From NCBI GenBank assembly GCA_016212635.1, contig JACRFR010000018.1, positions 4,080 to 68,079 of the forward strand: 64,000 bases of DNA, given 5' to 3'. This stretch comes from Candidatus Liptonbacteria bacterium. Its GTDB lineage: Bacteria > Patescibacteriota > Minisyncoccia > UBA6257 > 2-01-FULL-56-20. Every line of letters starts with the position of its first letter. Position 1 is the first letter of the stretch. Shown one piece after another: positions 18,386 through 61,028 of the stretch. Under the pieces are notes generated by a model. The model was not told the origin of the DNA. It worked only from the letters and a program-made list of their open reading frames with translations, and searched no databases. Made by a program: the position numbers and the translations under genes.

Positions 18386-19711
18386 TCATAGATCCGCGGG
18401 GATCTCGTGGCTGGGCGCCAGCTTGGGATCGGTCGGCAGGGTAAAAGAGAAAATGCTGCCTCGGTTGACTTCGGATTGGATGCTAAACTCCCCGCCGTGC
18501 GCCTTGATGATACTCTGAACGATAAATAAACCCAAGCCCGAGCCTTTGGTTTCGTATTTCAGGGCGTTTTCCGCGCGGAAGAATTTTTGTCCGATCTTGT
18601 CCAGCTCCTGCGGCGGGATGCCGATCCCGGTGTCGCGCACGGACAGTTTTTGGTAGGGGCGATCGGGCAGCTGTTCCAGCTTAACGATGATTTCCCCGTC
18701 TTTGATGTTGTAACGCACCGCATTTTCCAGCAGATTATTGATCACAATGGAGAGTTTTTGGGAATCTGCGATTGCGGGCGGCAATGGATCTTTGGGCCGA
18801 TCGAAGTACAATTTGAGGCCGGCTTGTTGGACCAGGGGTAAAAGCTGGGTCATAAGCTTGTCCGCCAGGGCGGCGAGATCCAGCGGTTCTTTCTGGTAGC
18901 CAAAGTGGCCCTCTTCGATTTTGGCAATGGACAGCAGGTCTTCGGTAATTTTCGCCAATTCCCGGCTGGATCCCAGAGTGGCTTGAATAATGGTTTGCGC
19001 GCCGGGGTTCAGAGTAGAGTCGCTCGCGAGCGCCTCCAGGGCCCAAATAATTTCCGTGATGGGCGTACGCAGTTGATGCGAAGCTACGGTGATAAAGTCA
19101 TTTTTGGAGCGGATCGACGCCAATTCCCGAGTGCGGTCGTGGACGATCTTAACAAACCCAATCAGGTTGCCCGATTCGTCGCGGATCAGCGAGGTTGCCA
19201 CCCGGAGTTCCATCGCGGGCAACTCGAAAGACAGGTCGATTATCTCCGGATAGGTACCGGCCTCGGAGCGGGGCGCCATCACGGGCGCGAGCGCCGGGTA
19301 GATAACTTGGGTCAGGCGCTGCAGTTCCGGCTTTTGGGCATCCCGCGGTTCGATCTTTTGCCGCACAACTTGGTCCGCGGTCACGCGAAACAACTTCTCG
19401 GCCGCGGGATTAAAGAAAATGATCCGGAAACTTGGGTCATAAGCGATCAGGGCGTCGCTCAAGCCGAATATAATATGGCGCAATTCGTTTTGCTCCCGCG
19501 TCACCTCCGGGCCCAGCGCCGCGGCGCGGCCAGTCTGGATAAAAGCCAGTCCGCCCAAGACCAGGAGCACAATCATGCCCAAATATCGCCAGGGGGCGGG
19601 CAGCCAAGCCAGCCCAATTAGAACCATCGCCCAGAGCGGGAGGGAAAACCAAAACACCCGCATGGCAGGCAAACGGATCGCTTCTTGTATTTGTTGACGC
19701 AATTTATCCAT
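18386..19711 (-). CDS. Sensor histidine kinase (transmembrane N-terminus, PAS-like domain, HisKA, HATPase_c).
   Basis: HQLRTPITEI H-box, and a GSGLGL region in the ATPase domain. The start was set at ATG 19711 (MDKLRQQ) because the longer ORF extension runs into the inverted-repeat element. Confidence 0.8.
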   Translation of the reverse strand: MDKLRQQIQEAIRLPAMRVFWFSLPLWAMVLIGLAWLPAPWRYLGMIVLLVLGGLAFIQTGRAAALGPEVTREQNELRHIIFGLSDALIAYDPSFRIIFFNPAAEKLFRVTADQVVRQKIEPRDAQKPELQRLTQVIYPALAPVMAPRSEAGTYPEIIDLSFELPAMELRVATSLIRDESGNLIGFVKIVHDRTRELASIRSKNDFITVASHQLRTPITEIIWALEALASDSTLNPGAQTIIQATLGSSRELAKITEDLLSIAKIEEGHFGYQKEPLDLAALADKLMTQLLPLVQQAGLKLYFDRPKDPLPPAIADSQKLSIVINNLLENAVRYNIKDGEIIVKLEQLPDRPYQKLSVRDTGIGIPPQELDKIGQKFFRAENALKYETKGSGLGLFIVQSIIKAHGGEFSIQSEVNRGSIFSFTLPTDPKLAPSHEIPADL

Positions 19712-19765
19712 AACCAGATCAACCGTGCAGCTCGAGATGGCCCCAGTCCTTCCCGGTACAGACCT

Positions 19766-19897
19766 GGCGCTGTTCGAAAACCCCAGGTTTGTCATTCCGG
19801 CGAAAGCCGGAATCCAGGTTTTCTTAGTCACTGGATCCCGGGTCAAGCCCGGGATGACGCTCGGCAAGCGGGGGAATCAATGTTTTCGAACAGCGCC
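19766..19897. mobile_element. MITE-like element copy A: 132 bp with 16-bp perfect terminal inverted repeats GGCGCTGTTCGAAAAC and a 7-bp flanking duplication (CAGACCT). It is inserted in the 3' end of polA.
   Basis: It is identical (1 mismatch) to 60587-60718. The interior has two hairpin arms, GTCATTCCGGCGAAAGCCGGAATCCAG and CTGGATCCCGGGTCAAGCCCGGGATGAC. The original polA C-terminus (..VKVCTGKDWGHLELHG*) can be reconstructed across the insertion. Confidence 0.8.
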
Positions 19898-22367
19898 TGC
19901 AGACCTTGACTGATATCGGCACGCCAAGTTCTGGAGCGGCACGCTCCATCGCCTCGCGCAGCACGGGTATGGTTTCTTCTATCTTATCATCGCGTATCTG
20001 GAACAGCAATTCATCATGGATCGAGAGAAGCAGTTGGACCGTACCGTCCCAGGAGTTGCGGCGCACTAATTCCGCGCGCGCTCGAATCATGGCCAGTTTG
20101 ATCAGGTCGGCTCCGGAACCTTGCACGGGATGGTTGATCGCGGCCCGTCCCGCAGCCGCGACCAGGCGCGGGGAGTTGGAGATGAACTCCGGAAAGTAGC
20201 GCCGGCGGCCAGTCAAGGTTTGGGTATAACCCAGAGTACGGGCGGTTTGTTGGGTCGCTTCCTGCCAATCGCGGACGCCCCGAAAATGCTGGAAATACGC
20301 GGCGATAAACTGGCGGGCGGCGGCCCGGTCGATGCCTCCCGTCCGGGCAAAAGCGCTTTCACCCATGCCGTAGATCAAACCGAAGTTCAGGGTTTTGGCG
20401 ATCCGCCGATCCGCATCCGTTACGGCGGAGAGTGGTTTGCCCAAGATCTCGGCGGCAGTGGCACGATGCACGTCGCCACCCTGCCGAAAAACTTGGAGCA
20501 GCTGCGGGTCGCCGGAGAGCACTGCCAGGATGCGCAATTCCAATTGGGAATAGTCCAGAGTAACCAGGGTGTGCCCCGGGTCTGACTGGAAGACACTCCG
20601 CAGCGCCGGCGCCCAAGGCGAGTCGCGGGGAATGTTCTGTAAGTTTGGGTTTTGGGAACTTAAGCGTCCGGTGGCGGTGCCGGTCTGGATAAATTCGGTG
20701 TGAGCGCGGCCTATGGAACGAGCCAGTTCCAAAAGCGGCAGGATGTAGGTGGATCGAATCTTGAAGTGTTCTCGATAAGCCAAGATTGAGGATATGGCCG
20801 GATGTCGGTCCGAGAGTTCGGCCAAGCGCTCCGCGTCGGTGGAACGGCTGGCTCTGACCGCGCTGGGCGGCAGAAGTTTCAGCTCCTCGAAGAGCACGGT
20901 AGCCAGTTGCGCCGGGGAGTTCAGATTGAACTCGTGTCCTATTGATCTATAGATTTTTTGTTCCAGCTCTTGGATGGCCCGGCCTAGTTCGTGCTGGATG
21001 GTTACGAGTCGAGCCGCATCCAAACGAATGCCGCGTTGTTCCATCTCCGCCAAGATCCGGAGCACGGGCATTTCCACTTGTTCGAAAACAGCAAGTAGCT
21101 GATTGTGCTGCAGTTTAGTTCTTAGAGCGGCGTACAGCTCCGCCAAATCGCGCTCGTTTACCCTGTTAGAATCTTCGTTTCTAACGGGGTTTAGCCGGCC
21201 ATCGCGTCCCAAAATACGCGCCGCGACCGTGGCGGGTGCATAATCTTTAAGGTCGGGCTCGAGCAGCCAAAAGGCCACGCCTAAATCGGCGTAGGGCGGT
21301 ACCAAGTCTTGACCTTGTGCCCAGGCCCGTTTCAGGGCGGTTTTTAGATCAAAACCGATCTTGATCCGGCGAGGATCATTTTGCCCGGGCCAGGCCGCCG
21401 TTTGGCTGGAAATTACCCAGCAAGCCCGCGATTCGTCTCCGGCGTCCACGGGGGAAGAAGTTGGAGGGGCGAAAAGGCCGCCGAGAGTCCGGGGAGGCGG
21501 GGTGGGGGTGGTTGGTTTAGGAACCAGAGAATCGAAACCAAGCTGGCGGAAGGTGGCCGCGGGCTCGCCGGGCGCATGGTCTCGCACCCGGAGTTGTTCC
21601 AGGTTCTGGATCGGCAGTTCGGCATCGCGTTTTAAGGTGACTAGTTCGCGGGAAAGCAGTATTTGTTTCCGGAAAGGTTCCAGTTTAGCCCGCAGTTTGG
21701 CATCTTGGGACGATTGCTGAAGCAGCGCATCCAGGGTGTGATATTCGGCCAGCCAACCAGAGGCAGTTTTAGGCCCAACTCCGGGCACACCCGGAACATT
21801 GTCGGAGGCATCGCCCACTAACGCTTTATAATCCACCAGCTGATTCGGGGCCAGGCCATACCGTTCCCGAACGGCGGCGGAGTTGTACACAATGGTGTCG
21901 CTGATCCCTTTTTTAAACGTGCGGATGGCTATGTGGCCGTCGTCGACCAGCTGCAGAGAGTCTAGGTCGCCGGTCAGGACTATGATCTTTAAATCCTCTT
22001 CTCGCCGAAATTTTTCCGCCAGGGTCGCGATAATGTCATCCGCTTCCACGCCGGGACATTCCACGCTGGTGATGCCCAAGATTGCGAAGAGGTCCCGGGC
22101 GGCAATGATCTGGGTTACCAATTCTCCGGGAGTGGGTGGACGCTGGGCTTTATAGGCCGGAAATTGGAGTTTGCGGAAGGTAGGTTCGGGACGGTCGAAC
22201 GCGGCGGCGGCGAAATCCGGTTTGCCTTCGCGCCAAAGTTTCAAGAGGATGCGGGCCACGCCGTAGAGCGCTCCGGTGGGACGGCCATCCGGAGCCGAGA
22301 GCGGCGGCAGGGCGTGAAACATCCGGTGGATGAGCGAGTTGGCGTCTAAGAGGAGGAGGGTTTTCAT
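19824..22367 (-). CDS. polA: DNA polymerase I (5' nuclease + polymerase domains). The 3' end is remodeled by the MITE insertion.
   Basis: N-terminal 5'-3' exonuclease motifs, and polymerase motifs DYSQLELRILA, FGLIYGMG, LLSIHDELLF. The last 24 aa (CRRCSKTLIPPLAERHPGLDPGSSD) are encoded by the inserted element. Confidence 0.95.
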   Translation of the reverse strand: MKTLLLLDANSLIHRMFHALPPLSAPDGRPTGALYGVARILLKLWREGKPDFAAAAFDRPEPTFRKLQFPAYKAQRPPTPGELVTQIIAARDLFAILGITSVECPGVEADDIIATLAEKFRREEDLKIIVLTGDLDSLQLVDDGHIAIRTFKKGISDTIVYNSAAVRERYGLAPNQLVDYKALVGDASDNVPGVPGVGPKTASGWLAEYHTLDALLQQSSQDAKLRAKLEPFRKQILLSRELVTLKRDAELPIQNLEQLRVRDHAPGEPAATFRQLGFDSLVPKPTTPTPPPRTLGGLFAPPTSSPVDAGDESRACWVISSQTAAWPGQNDPRRIKIGFDLKTALKRAWAQGQDLVPPYADLGVAFWLLEPDLKDYAPATVAARILGRDGRLNPVRNEDSNRVNERDLAELYAALRTKLQHNQLLAVFEQVEMPVLRILAEMEQRGIRLDAARLVTIQHELGRAIQELEQKIYRSIGHEFNLNSPAQLATVLFEELKLLPPSAVRASRSTDAERLAELSDRHPAISSILAYREHFKIRSTYILPLLELARSIGRAHTEFIQTGTATGRLSSQNPNLQNIPRDSPWAPALRSVFQSDPGHTLVTLDYSQLELRILAVLSGDPQLLQVFRQGGDVHRATAAEILGKPLSAVTDADRRIAKTLNFGLIYGMGESAFARTGGIDRAAARQFIAAYFQHFRGVRDWQEATQQTARTLGYTQTLTGRRRYFPEFISNSPRLVAAAGRAAINHPVQGSGADLIKLAMIRARAELVRRNSWDGTVQLLLSIHDELLFQIRDDKIEETIPVLREAMERAAPELGVPISVKVCRRCSKTLIPPLAERHPGLDPGSSD

Positions 22368-34005: not shown

Positions 34006-34593
34006 CAAACAACCTCCACAATCTATTCTGTATCCCAAGCTAGCGATTAATATTTTTAAAGGTTATTTTTTATCAAAGGTCGGCGGCTACCATTTTTGTG
34101 GAATGTCCACCGAGTTACTAAATATCCGAATGGCATTTCGAGGCTTGAGTGATGAAGACACTGGCGGTGAAGAGGAGGTGGGAGGTGGTTTTGGTGTCCC
34201 TAGTAAAGGCAATGGTGACGATGATGATGGCGTGGAAGAACCAAAGGAAGAACTAGAGGAGGGCGCGGAAGCAGATGAAGATGACGATGATTTGGAGGGA
34301 GGGGATTCTGAAATCTAGGCTGGTTGGTTCGATGTAGTTCTGGGGCGGCGGAGTAGGCAAGGCGGGAATCCAGAATTTCCGGGCCTAGATTCCCTGCCGG
34401 CCGTCAGGCGGGCGGATATGGCCTGCTGACCATTCCGGAATGACAGACAAATACATAGTTTCGTAATTCAAGGTCAGATGGCGCGGCCTGGCGCTATTCG
34501 GAAACGTCAAAAAGTTATTCCCTGAGCCCGTCGAAGGGTAGCTTTTGGGCGGGTACATGGCATGGCCCTCGACAAGCTCGGGCAATAAAATCG

Positions 34594-37182
34594 GTGGTTT
34601 CCGAACAGCGCCACGCGGCCTCGACAGTTGAGGTGGTTTTTCCGATAATGCATGATATGCGGTTGACCAGAGAACGTTCCCCCGAAGGGATAAGGCACAA
34701 GTTGCGTTTGTTTGGGCATCGTCTATCTACCCCACCAGAGAATACAAGTTCTCTAGTGGGGTCTGCCGCTCCCAAAAGAGAACGTCCCAGGAAACCCGGA
34801 CGGCGGGCCCGCCGAATTTGGTTGTGGTTGGTTTTGGTGGTGGGGGTGATTGCGGTGCTCGCCCTTATTTGGGTGGCCTTATTGCTCCAAGACCTGCCGT
34901 CTACGGAACAAATTTTGAGCCGCCGGGTAAGTCAGTCGACCAAGATCTACGACCGCACCGGACAGGTGGTTTTATATGAGATTGGGGGGGATCAAAAACG
35001 AACCGTTATTTCCGGGGAGGAAATACCCCAGTCGCTCAAAAACGCGACTATCGCTGCAGAGGATGAGCGGTTCTACTCTGATTCCGCCATCGACTACCGC
35101 GGTTTGTTGCGCGCGCTATGGACAAACTTGAGGAGTGGCCGGGTGGTTCAGGGCGGGTCCACCATCACCCAGCAGTTGGCCAAAAACGCCTTCTTGACTT
35201 CGGATCAGACCCTAACCCGGAAGATCCGGGAGGTTTTCCTGGCGATCCGTTTGGCGCGCAACTACACCAAAGACCAGATCTTGGCCATGTACTTAAATGA
35301 GATACCTTACGGACCAACGATCTATGGAGTGGAGGGTGCGGGTCAGTTGTACTTTGGCAAACCCGCTCGTGATTTGAGTCTGGCCGAGAGCGCGGTTCTA
35401 GCCGCCCTGCCTAAGGCCCCGAGCCGTTTAGCGCCCGGCGGCAGCCACCAGGACGAACTTATTGCCAGACAGCGGACTATTTTGCGGAAAATGAACAGAT
35501 TGGGAATGATCTCGGCCGAGGAACTGGAGGTGGCGTTGAATGCCAAGCTTAGTTTTGTTCCGCCTACTCATGGGATCAAGGCGCCCCATTTTGTTTTCTG
35601 GGTGCAAGATTATTTGATCGAACGTTACGGGGAGGAGTTGGTTAGAAGCGGCGGCTTGCGAGTGATCACCACCCTGGACTGGGAGATGCAGCAGGCGGCG
35701 GAAAAGGCGGTGCGAGAGGGCGCGGAACGCAATCAAAAGTTGTACCAGGGACGGAATGCGGCCTTGGTCGCGGAAGATCCCCGCACCGGGCAGGTCTTAG
35801 CCCTGGTCGGCTCCCGAGATTACTTTGACCTGGAACATAACGGCAACTTTAATGTGGCCGCTCAAGGACTGCGCCAGCCCGGATCGACCCTTAAACCATT
35901 CGTCTACTTGACCGCTTTCCAAAAAGGCTATTCTCCAGACTCGGTGGTTTTCGATGTCCCGACTGAATTTGTGGCGCGCGACCCAGACTGTCCGCCGGAA
36001 CCGGTTTTTGAGATAGAGAGTCCCACTTGTTTCCATCCCCAAAATTTTGATGATTCTTTTCTGGGTCCGGTTCCCTTCCGCCGCGCCTTGGCCCAATCCC
36101 GTAATATTCCAGCGGTGAAGGTTTTGTACTTGGTGGGATTCAAGGACGCCCTAACCAACGCCACTCGTTTTGGATTGACCACCCTAACTAACCCGGCCGA
36201 GTATGGCTTGTCTTTGGTCTTGGGCGGTGGCGCGGTCCGTTTAGTAAATTTAGTGGAGGCCTATTCAGTTTTAGCGGGAGACGGCGTGCGTCATGCCCAA
36301 GGATCTATTTTGGAAGTTAAGGATAGTTCGGGCGCAATCTTAGAGACTTATCGCGACAGCGCGGAGCGAGTGGCAGAAGCGCAACCGGTGCGGCTGGTGA
36401 ATAACATATTAACCGACCTGGACGCGCGATCTGGCTTGTTCCACAGCAGTCTGGCGCTCACTACTATACCCGGACATGATATTGCCATTAAAACCGGAAC
36501 TTCCAATGACTACCGCGACGCTTGGGTGGTTGGTTACTCTTCCGCCTTGGTGGTGGGGGTTTGGGCGGGTAATAATAACAATCAGCCCATGCAGCGCCAG
36601 GGCTCCAGCCTTTTGGCGGCGGTTCCGATCTGGCACAGCTTCGCAGTCGAGGCCTTCCCTCGGGTCCCACCGGAAAAATTTCCCGCGCCGGAACCGGTCG
36701 CGCGCTCCGACAAACCGATGTTCAGTGGTCAAGTGGTCAGTAATAATCAGATCCATTCGCTTTTGTATTACGTCAACCGAACCGATCCCACCGGGCCGGC
36801 CCCGGAGCGCCCGGAGCGTGATCCCCAGTTCTATAATTGGGAAATGGGTGTTTTGCTTTGGGCCCAAAAGAATGTTCCGGCTTTAGTAGCCGGCAATAAT
36901 GCCACCTCGTCCCCGCAAATTAGTTTCGCTTCTCCCGCCAATGGCAGTTCTTTTGTTGATTCCATCAACTTAACCGCGTCGGTGGCTTCCGCCACGCCCT
37001 TGAAGCGAATCAGTATTTCTTTTAACGGGGTCTTGATTCAAGAGGTGGCTCCGGAGTCACCCGGACCATACCAGATCAACTGGTCTTTTGTTCCCGCCAA
37101 CCCCCAGCCTCAAAACATTTTAGAAATTGAGGCGCGAAACGCGAGTAGCACCAGTCGGGAGGGAATAATTTTATACCACTAG
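34594..37182 (+). CDS. Class A penicillin-binding protein (glycosyltransferase + transpeptidase) with a C-terminal Ig-like extension.
   Basis: IAAEDERFY, GGSTITQQLAKN (GT51 motifs), transmembrane anchor, transpeptidase region. The start may be at internal ATGs 34651/34657. Confidence 0.88.
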   Translation: MVSEQRHAASTVEVVFPIMHDMRLTRERSPEGIRHKLRLFGHRLSTPPENTSSLVGSAAPKRERPRKPGRRARRIWLWLVLVVGVIAVLALIWVALLLQDLPSTEQILSRRVSQSTKIYDRTGQVVLYEIGGDQKRTVISGEEIPQSLKNATIAAEDERFYSDSAIDYRGLLRALWTNLRSGRVVQGGSTITQQLAKNAFLTSDQTLTRKIREVFLAIRLARNYTKDQILAMYLNEIPYGPTIYGVEGAGQLYFGKPARDLSLAESAVLAALPKAPSRLAPGGSHQDELIARQRTILRKMNRLGMISAEELEVALNAKLSFVPPTHGIKAPHFVFWVQDYLIERYGEELVRSGGLRVITTLDWEMQQAAEKAVREGAERNQKLYQGRNAALVAEDPRTGQVLALVGSRDYFDLEHNGNFNVAAQGLRQPGSTLKPFVYLTAFQKGYSPDSVVFDVPTEFVARDPDCPPEPVFEIESPTCFHPQNFDDSFLGPVPFRRALAQSRNIPAVKVLYLVGFKDALTNATRFGLTTLTNPAEYGLSLVLGGGAVRLVNLVEAYSVLAGDGVRHAQGSILEVKDSSGAILETYRDSAERVAEAQPVRLVNNILTDLDARSGLFHSSLALTTIPGHDIAIKTGTSNDYRDAWVVGYSSALVVGVWAGNNNNQPMQRQGSSLLAAVPIWHSFAVEAFPRVPPEKFPAPEPVARSDKPMFSGQVVSNNQIHSLLYYVNRTDPTGPAPERPERDPQFYNWEMGVLLWAQKNVPALVAGNNATSSPQISFASPANGSSFVDSINLTASVASATPLKRISISFNGVLIQEVAPESPGPYQINWSFVPANPQPQNILEIEARNASSTSREGIILYH

Positions 37183-46867: not shown

Positions 46868-46946
46868 TCTGTCATTCCCGCGCAGGCGGGAATCCAGGCC
46901 CCAGGGCAAGTTGCATACTGGATCCCCGCATTCGCGAGGATGACAG
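46868..46946. repeat. Imperfect 29-bp-arm inverted repeat related to the MITE interior (CTGTCATTCCCGCGCAGGCGGGAATCCAG ... CTGGATCCCCGCATTCGCGAGGATGACAG).
   Basis: It shares the GTCATTCC-G/CGC-GGGAATCCAGG core with the 19.8-kb and 60.6-kb elements but lacks their terminal inverted repeats. Confidence 0.5.
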
Positions 46947-60437: not shown

Positions 60438-60575
60438 GTGCCCAGATTATACCCACCCCCTAATTGTGTCAATAGTCATCCACAAAACACAAAATATCCT
60501 TATAAAGTAAGTATAAAACAGACACATGCTATTGACAATGTACTTATATATGATATAATCCCAGTAGGAGGTAGT

Positions 60576-61028
60576 ATGACCTACAGGGCGCTGTTCGAAA
60601 ACCCCAGGTTTGTCATTCCGGCGAAAGCCGGAATCCAGGTTTTCTTAGTCACTGGATCCCGGGTCAAGCCCGGGATGACACTCGGCAAGCGGGGGAATCA
60701 ATGTTTTCGAACAGCGCCGACCTACAAAGTTATCGATCGGTTGCCGCCGCGCGGTGGTGCATTTGACCCCGATGTCGCAAAGGCCGTGGCGGCCGGCTAC
60801 GATTTGACAATTCACTACACGTTTCAGGAGGGAGAAGGCTGGTCTTGTTTCGTTGCGGTTCGGGACCGACATGATAATCCGCCGAACTATACCAAGATTT
60901 TAGCGGACCCTCGCTTCGTGAACGCCCTGGAAGTTGCAGGGTTGGCCAACTTTCGGTACACAGGCGGCGCGGAAAGCGACGAGGAATTGATCAAGGCGCT
61001 GAAAGAGATATTCCCGACCCTGTACTGA
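60576..61028 (+). CDS. Small hypothetical protein whose codons 4-50 are supplied by an in-frame MITE insertion. It is preceded by consensus TTGACA-16-TATAAT and an AGGAGG SD.
   Basis: MTY[RALFENPRFVIPAKAGIQVFLVTGSRVKPGMTLGKRGNQCFRTAPTY]KVIDRLPPRGG... The bracketed 47 aa are the element plus its 8-bp TSD. Confidence 0.5.
   Translation: MTYRALFENPRFVIPAKAGIQVFLVTGSRVKPGMTLGKRGNQCFRTAPTYKVIDRLPPRGGAFDPDVAKAVAAGYDLTIHYTFQEGEGWSCFVAVRDRHDNPPNYTKILADPRFVNALEVAGLANFRYTGGAESDEELIKALKEIFPTLY
60587..60718. mobile_element. MITE-like element copy B (132 bp, 16-bp TIRs) with an 8-bp target-site duplication GACCTACA at 60578-60585 and 60719-60726.
   Basis: Near-identical to 19766-19897. The TSD was verified on both flanks. 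Confidence 0.85.

Follow-up and report, generated by a model that had tools for sequence, protein, structure and literature searches.

The polA gene described here lies on the reverse strand of a 64-kb stretch of a Candidatus Liptonbacteria genome (contig JACRFR010000018.1; "the window" below means this whole stretch of 64,000 nucleotides) and is interrupted close to its 3' end by a miniature inverted-repeat transposable element (MITE), a short sequence bounded by terminal inverted repeats (TIRs). Its product is 100% identical to HY978_01300 of Candidatus Liptonbacteria bacterium. The features of the locus are:

19824–22367, reverse strand: interrupted polA coding sequence, 847 amino acids, carrying 5'-nuclease and family-A polymerase domains; its final 24 codons and its stop, TAA, are located within the MITE
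19766–19897, no strand assigned: 132-bp MITE, made of two 16-bp TIRs and a 100-bp interior of two hairpin modules
19766–19781, forward strand: left TIR, GGCGCTGTTCGAAAAC, from a pattern scan of the window
19882–19897, reverse strand: right TIR, the exact reverse complement of the left TIR, from the same scan
19757–19765, no strand assigned: left 9-bp target-site duplication, TACAGACCT, from comparison of the flanks
19898–19906, no strand assigned: right 9-bp target-site duplication, TGCAGACCT, from the same comparison; its final T is base 1 of a TTGACT hexamer
19719–19757, reverse strand: native polA tail left stranded, with 12 codons (TGKDWGHLELHG) and a TGA stop, intact and in frame once 141 bp are removed

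The two TIR arms are complementary at 16 of 16 positions and stand 100 nt apart, in agreement with the 132-bp element with perfect 16-bp TIRs that had been described at 19766–19897 from the letters alone (the sequence-only reading). That reading had also reported a flanking duplicated heptamer, CAGACCT. A duplication is indeed present, but it is 9 bp long rather than 7 bp, the bases TG at 19898–19899 having been overlooked, and its right heptamer lies at 19900–19906, 1 bp from the position first given (19899–19905) and 141 bp from its partner at 19759–19765. The full duplication, T[A/G]CAGACCT, is identical at 8 of 9 positions, with an A/G mismatch that is synonymous in polA (TGT/TGC, Cys), and the element together with one duplicate measures 141 bp, or 47 codons. 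When up to three mismatches were allowed, the TIR 16-mer matched the window seven times against 1.09 expected, a number attained in none of 100 shuffles, and six of the seven matches pair into three TIR pairs. Two of the six reading frames are open across the element and no frame is transposase-like; with 132 bp, it lies well within the limit of ~500 bp for a MITE and has the non-coding character of one. Transcribed in the direction of polA, the element and its duplications are predicted to fold with −68.2 kcal/mol (z = −5.1). An Rfam search with the element matched no family, and a promoter and terminator scan of 19500–20100 returned no promoter-like site and no terminator within the element, lending no support to a role as a mobile promoter or terminator.

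In-silico excision of the 141 bp yields an in-frame PolA of 835 amino acids ending in VPISVKVCTGKDWGHLELHG and a stop (terminal part, VKVCTGKDWGHLELHG), with a rejoined pre-insertion junction that reads GGTACAGACC followed directly by TTGACTG. As previously proposed, removing the element thus restores an uninterrupted polA 3' end that resembles the canonical Pol I tail, the 119 homologues retrieved ending in the recovered motif, and polA as it stands terminates inside the element, at a TAA within the MITE. The replacement had been put at about 15 native residues for 24 new ones; the 24 element-encoded residues (RRCSKTLIPPLAERHPGLDPGSSD) stand, while the native residues number 12 (TGKDWGHLELHG), the tail Cys being retained because the duplicated target encodes Cys. 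Across the 119 PolA homologues, positions of the native tail are occupied by G in 118, K in 84, D or N in 83, W in 108, G in 107, and L or M in 114, and this conserved C-terminal motif, G-K-[DN]-W-G, is absent from the present open reading frame (ORF) and found only in the stranded downstream codons. The possibility that related genomes carry the 24-residue tail as their native PolA C-terminus was addressed by the same comparison: all 119 homologues cover 97% of the query, and none matches that tail. The closest other PolA relative in the protein collection is 51% identical.

The restored C-terminus can be aligned to Klentaq through VPLEVEVGIGEDW (...VEVGIGEDW), as can polymerase motifs A and C (DYSQLELR and HDE), and both motifs as well as the 5'-nuclease domains are unaffected by the insertion. 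Pfam matches were obtained to PF02739, PF01367, and PF00476, the DNA_pol_A match in the present ORF ending at residue 822 (position 373 in a profile of 381). The protein has no Pfam match for a 3'-5' exonuclease domain and consists of the 5'-nuclease (N-terminal and SAM-fold) and polymerase parts only, like Taq polymerase. When the C-terminal 425 residues of the present protein were modelled with AlphaFold, the mean predicted local distance difference test score (pLDDT) was 90.4 and the last beta-strand was retained, with residues 826–847 below 50 and the remainder averaging about 90 or more; in a control model of the homologue P0057, whose native tail ends in GKDWGHLQEIHG, the last twenty residues were ordered, with pLDDT of 90–97. 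On these models, the insertion removes a terminal motif that is ordered and nearly invariant, and adds a tail that is predicted to be disordered. An effect on Pol I is possible because the lost residues are conserved (G in 118 of 119 homologues, W in 108 of 119) and because of these structure predictions, and it would consist in a polymerase domain that is less stable or less active, next to an unaffected 5'-nuclease domain. Pol I is usually the sole repair and Okazaki-processing polymerase in the tiny genomes of the candidate phyla radiation (CPR). The insertion also appears to be recent, as the sequence-only reading had suggested, because neither the 12 stranded codons nor the stop behind them shows decay and a sister copy of the element differs at only 1 of 132 positions. 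Genes interrupted by MITEs have been described before, and taken alone the polA event is an ordinary recent MITE insertion, whose local interest is that a nearly invariant motif is lost while the 5'-nuclease domain is spared.

The same TIRs bound larger elements that encode a transposase. An element in metagenomic locus L122 (loci are denoted by L numbers) is 948 bp long and carries these TIRs, a perfect 9-bp duplication (AATTTTTTA), and a decayed DDE transposase. A search with this transposase returned about 120 relatives of ~305 amino acids with a PF01609 domain, mostly on contigs of ~1 kb, the size of an insertion sequence (IS). Among these loci, intact ISs of 939–954 bp are bounded by GGCGCTGTTCG[A/G]AAAC (954 bp in L136–L141, 939 bp in L142, and ~945 bp in L143–L145, L147, L148, and L150), and the TIR of the polA copy is found exactly on L144 and L145 and with 1 mismatch on L136–L143, while a sister group of ISs (L126–L135) ends in AAGGCTGTTCGAAAAC. 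Perfect 9-bp duplications flank the L122 IS and those of L136, L142, L143, L147, and L150, and they occur wherever both original flanks are preserved. Intact transposases are 294–328 amino acids long and belong to PF01609 (DDE_Tnp_1), with D118, D194, E249, R245, and K256 invariant in 25 transposases. Because their best NCBIfam match, to the IS5 family model NF033579, scores 91–101 bits against a cut-off of 140 bits (IS4 ranking second), we refer to the parent as IS5-like and not as a certified IS5 member. The ISL3 family, with GGCTCTT... ends and an 8-bp duplication, was considered and dropped, the transposase being DDE_Tnp_1/IS5-like and the duplications 9 bp. In the groundwater contigs L127, L129, L130, and L133, a gene for a 153-aa Y1_Tnp protein (PF01797; IS200/RAYT-like) is located ~250–800 bp to the right of the IS.

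The IS903 group is defined in ISfinder by a length of ~1 kb, one ORF, and a 9-bp duplication. The family found here, including ISAae1, has a single ORF, lengths of 939–1010 bp, and a 9-bp duplication, and it shares with IS903-type members of the IS5 family a single DDE_Tnp_1 transposase of ~305 amino acids with the D-D-E and R(3)E(6)K signature, a length of ~1 kb, and short TIRs beginning with GGC. It differs in that its transposases fall below the NCBIfam IS5 cut-off. The inverted repeat of IS903, GGCTTTGTTGAATAAATC, resembles GGCGCTGTTCGAAAAC. The favoured target of IS903 is a loose palindrome, and the element is not known to use a –35 hexamer at a set distance. The transposases are at most 27% identical to those of any annotated IS in the plasmid collection, the nearest named relative being ISAae1 from Aquifex aeolicus plasmid ece1 (L152, NC_001880.1, 539–1548; 27.3% identity over 76% of the transposase), a 1010-bp element annotated as IS5-like whose inverted repeats contain GCCYGTTKAAAAA. 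The family is therefore absent among the annotated elements in the resources searched. Judged by its sequence, the polA element is a true MITE and belongs to an IS5-like family of the IS903 type, the 9-bp duplication being the shared trait, because the same TIRs bound intact transposase-encoding ISs that make such duplications. The earlier description of the element as MITE-like is accordingly borne out by its short length, its non-coding character, its TIRs and duplication, its three copies in the window, and the TIRs it has in common with transposase-encoding ISs.

A search of the window for further TIR pairs, a check that had been proposed with the sequence-only reading, revealed two more copies that had escaped it:

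60587–60718, no strand assigned: sister MITE copy, identical to the polA copy at 131 of 132 positions, with the duplication GACCTACA[G/A] at 60578–60586 and 60719–60727
34490–34612, no strand assigned: related 123-bp MITE with the same TIRs (1–2 mismatches) and a different interior, with the duplication [G/A]CGCGGCCT at 34481–34489 and 34613–34621

Each of the three copies has a 9-bp duplication that is 8/9 identical. The copy at 34490 lies between ruvC and the gene for PBP1A, directly upstream of TCGACA-17 nt-GATAAT (34621–34649), which is likely the PBP1A promoter. The sister copy at 60587 interrupts a putative orphan ORF (60576–61028 in the window, with its ATG at 60576) in frame, directly behind codon 3; it introduces no stop and adds 47 residues to the predicted protein. 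Upstream of this ORF are a consensus promoter (TTGACA at 60532, a 16-nt spacer, and TATAAT at 60554) and an AGGAGG ribosome-binding site; a homologue search with the ORF returned only itself. Beyond the window, a gapped TIR...TIR pattern retrieved five more MITEs from metagenome contigs, L122 among them, and nothing from viral contigs, and these MITEs have only the TIRs in common, their interiors being different hairpin modules; analogous GTCAT...ATGAC interiors are found in the MITEs of L121, L123, and L124. Two other searches added little: an exact scan of genome contigs for the TIR 16-mer gave more than 120 single matches scattered over unrelated phyla, which is about chance for 596 Gb and uninformative, and a search with the 44-aa peptide encoded by the element gave one weak match. 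Some of the scattered matches are coding coincidences, such as the exact 16-mer at L004 6474–6489, which belongs to the last codons of an ftsY-like gene whose product ends in ...FVKALFEN (...ALFEN).

At 46869–46946 of the window, an intergenic double hairpin (CTGTCATTCCCGCGCAGGCGGGAATCCAGG...CTGGATCCCCGCATTCGCGAGGATGACAG) has the module type of the MITE interior. Because this unit occurs without the IS TIRs, it suggests that the MITE consists of IS ends around a second, independent repeat family. The interior repeat family translates to spurious peptides (VIPAKAGIQ and IPAFAGMT), and a literature search on the IPAFAGMT repeat returned nothing relevant in the freely accessible literature.

Next, we evaluated the sequences flanking these elements. 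Read outward from the element ends, nearly all insertions have one flank of the form TIR-N8-TTGAC, as in the following examples:

19906–19911, forward strand (opposite to polA): TTGACT, a –35-like hexamer overlapping codons S819-V820-K821, the putative target determinant, with no –10 box
polA flank: tgcagacc TTGACT
34-kb copy flank: acgcggcc TCGACA-17 nt-GATAAT
L136 flank: cggggtgg TTGACA-17 nt-TATTAT, upstream of greA
L137 flank: cataggtc TTGACA-17 nt-TATAAT
L143 flank: gatatggc TTGACA-16 nt-TATAAT

Since the target loci were retrieved through the TIR or the transposase and never through the flank, the enrichment in TTGAC is not circular. In a first tally, TTGAC occupied exactly positions 9–13 in 13 of 32 distinct flanks, against a background of 8.4e-4 per position (binomial P = 3.7e-32); with three more sites, the match was exact in 16 and near in another 4 of the 21 independent insertion events that could be evaluated. 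A –10-like hexamer (≥4/6 to TATAAT) follows at 16–18 nt in 17 of 19 sites, and at the polA site there is none. The hexamer shares its first T with base 9 of the duplication, and it belongs to the target and not to the element, because the far-side duplicate is not followed by TGACA. ISs are inserted in both orientations. The L122 locus holds two neighbouring paralogous genes (products ending in ...FLAVKQEKAD) with near-identical promoters; a MITE sits at one of these promoters and the decayed IS at the other (971–1094 and 2042–2989), each exactly 8 bp upstream of TTGACA, in what looks like a pair of independent insertions at duplicated targets. The window contains 35 TTGAC[AT] sites, 6 of them with a –10 box. 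Because TTGACT stands at the expected distance in polA and no –10 box follows, the flanks argue for recognition of the DNA hexamer itself and not of an active promoter, and polA was probably hit as a decoy through a chance antisense –35 look-alike.

ISAae1 shows the same geometry. It has a perfect 9-bp duplication, AACCAAGGT, and its flank, aaccaagg TTTACA-16 nt-TATACT, has the same phasing as in the family described here, although it belongs to another phylum, has another terminal sequence, and is autonomous, the comparison being with one copy. A palindromic target (TGTCAA-N-TTGACA), as suggested by the ISAae1 site, was rejected as the other sites are asymmetric. On the strength of this flank, the target rule may be old and widespread in the IS5-like branch that contains ISAae1. 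More specifically, an IS5-like clade of groundwater candidate-phyla bacteria, together with ISAae1, would measure its 9-bp staggered cut from TTGACA, such that ISs and MITEs insert 8 bp upstream of sigma-70-type –35 boxes, a generalization to which we give even chances. Literature searches for ISs targeting –35 boxes, for MITEs in CPR bacteria, and for ISAae1 returned nothing relevant in the freely accessible literature, and the target rule is probably new.

Taken together, these observations can be combined in one scenario. The 132-bp element is a non-autonomous derivative of an IS of ~0.95 kb with an IS5-like DDE transposase of ~305 amino acids, and a transposase encoded elsewhere would recognize the 16-bp TIRs (GGCGCTGTTCGRAAAC) and insert the element through a 9-bp staggered cut, implying mobilization in trans within the Liptonbacteria genome. 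The duplication comprises N8 and the first T of a TTGACA-like hexamer, placing the element exactly 8 bp upstream of a –35 box, a position that leaves promoter and genes intact. In polA, the antisense of S819-V820-K821 reads TTGACT by chance and would have acted as a decoy for the MITE, which landed 12 codons before the stop; translation now continues for 24 codons into the element and halts at TAA, with the G-K-D-W-G tail lost and its coding sequence stranded downstream. As a whole, we consider this account, i.e., a recent MITE of an IS5-like family, an N8-TTGACA target rule, and a decoy in polA, to be the best explanation and hold it with considerable confidence.

Other mobile elements resemble parts of this system. 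The Correia elements of Neisseria, Nezha, and Chunjie are likewise short, TIR-bounded, non-coding DDE derivatives with near-identical copies and strong hairpins, found near or in genes; they differ in their TIRs and duplication (Correia elements duplicate TA), whereas the MITE described here has an interior of unrelated hairpin modules instead of a deleted IS and a –35-like target. Rickettsia palindromic elements (RPEs) are comparable to the copy at 60587, with its in-frame read-through and 47 added residues, but they lack TIRs, an IS partner, and target duplication, and in the polA copy, unlike RPEs, the frame meets a stop, so that the protein is truncated and re-tailed, not expanded. Tn7 at attTn7 and yeast Ty3 at Pol III start sites also insert at a fixed distance from a conserved motif and spare host genes; there is no homology, however, and the determinant here is apparently a 5–6-bp DNA motif with many occurrences per genome. 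We know of no targeting protein for the IS5-like family described here.

Several observations weigh against this account. No transposase gene is present within the 64-kb window, and an empty-site polA allele was not found in the protein collection, where a single member, from a single contig, makes up the PolA cluster. The locus is known from one metagenome-assembled genome (MAG) assembly. Each window duplication carries one G/A transition, at position 2 (19757), 1 (34481), and 9 (60578), unlike the perfect duplications of seven IS copies elsewhere, even though two of the three window MITEs are 131/132 identical; possible sources are deamination in single-stranded gaps before fill-in, donor bases carried over, the consensus of a mixed population, or gene conversion masking the age of the copies. 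Finally, the sister copy at 60587 has no TTGAC hexamer at the expected offset, and the promoter association may come partly from the survival of harmless insertions.

The last two points lead to an alternative in which the insertion is real, its site is a matter of chance, and the TTGACA association reflects the survival of harmless intergenic insertions. Consistent with this, 17 of the 19 sites are plausible promoters in intergenic DNA that tolerates insertion, and the copy without the motif is a recent one. Selection is insufficient alone, however, because the phasing is exact to the base: survival in intergenic DNA cannot give such spacing, with TTGAC starting at position 9 in 16 of 21 events. 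Moreover, the polA site is intragenic and without a –10 box, yet has TTGACT at the exact offset, and the same geometry recurs in ISAae1, in a different phylum. We regard a chance site as unlikely.

A second alternative holds that the insertion is adaptive or regulatory and concerns both polA and the gene that follows it:

18386–19711, reverse strand: PAS-HisKA-HATPase histidine kinase gene, with an ATG at 19711 that is likely the true start, 441 amino acids

The kinase ATG is located 7 nt past the native polA stop, and is now 112 nt past the new stop, beyond the folded element. Because of the former 7-nt spacing, the two genes were probably translationally coupled before the insertion, and it is plausible that this coupling was lost through it. 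No stop interrupts the kinase frame upstream either, across the stranded tail and within the MITE as far as 19867, and the mechanical ORF (18386–19867, 493 aa) has a TTG start within the element and overlaps the new polA end. Under the adaptive alternative, a remodelled Pol I (e.g., a mutator or a low-polymerase variant) would be tolerated or selected, or the kinase gene would have gained a new control point. The 5'-nuclease domain and all catalytic motifs do remain, the last beta-strand is still predicted, and a strongly structured RNA now stands between polA and the kinase gene. Against this, nothing suggests that the insertion is old or fixed, the stranded tail being undecayed and no relative carrying the insertion; the family hardly varies at the residues that were lost, and the element brings no promoter-like site to the scanned region. 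An adaptive role is, in our estimate, slightly less probable again than a chance site.

An assembly or binning artefact, by which a mis-joined or collapsed repeat placed the element in polA while the true gene is intact, is very improbable. Beyond the single assembly mentioned above, it would draw on the element being repeated at least three times in 64 kb and on the chimeric flanks that are frequent for this family in metagenome assemblies, where one right flank is seen with differing left flanks in L136/L137 and in L126/L127/L132. A mis-join would not, however, create the 9-bp duplication found at both junctions, nor are the rejoining of the flanks into a continuous, in-frame polA with a family-typical tail and the agreement of the site with the N8-TTGAC rule expected from it. 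Least probable of all is a palindromic repeat akin to repetitive extragenic palindromic (REP) sequences and their mosaic elements (BIMEs) or to RPEs, spread by a Y1 (RAYT) transposase or recombination instead of a DDE-type MITE: it would fit the hairpin modules of the interior, the double hairpin standing alone at 46869–46946, the Y1_Tnp genes adjoining ISs in four loci, and a 141-bp length that is a multiple of three with two open frames, as in RPEs, but such elements lack TIRs shared with DDE ISs and target duplications of fixed length, whereas the only part conserved across the family described here is the 16-bp TIR, identical to the ends of DDE ISs with a 9-bp duplication. Likewise, the polA element falls outside the REP/RAYT repeats as it has TIRs and a duplication, and its partner is a DDE transposase.

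Overall, the recent MITE insertion in polA owes its broader significance to the target rule. If the rule extends to the whole clade, a promoter-proximal safe haven of this kind would be, as far as the literature search went, undescribed for a bacterial IS; promoters of uncultivated bacteria could be recognized by the insertions next to them, and the transposase would represent a compact sequence-directed integrase. The target rule explains why a –35 look-alike in a coding sequence was hit, as well as how transposons can survive in streamlined genomes whose intergenic regions are very short, and it offers a testable model of sequence-directed target choice by a simple DDE transposase.

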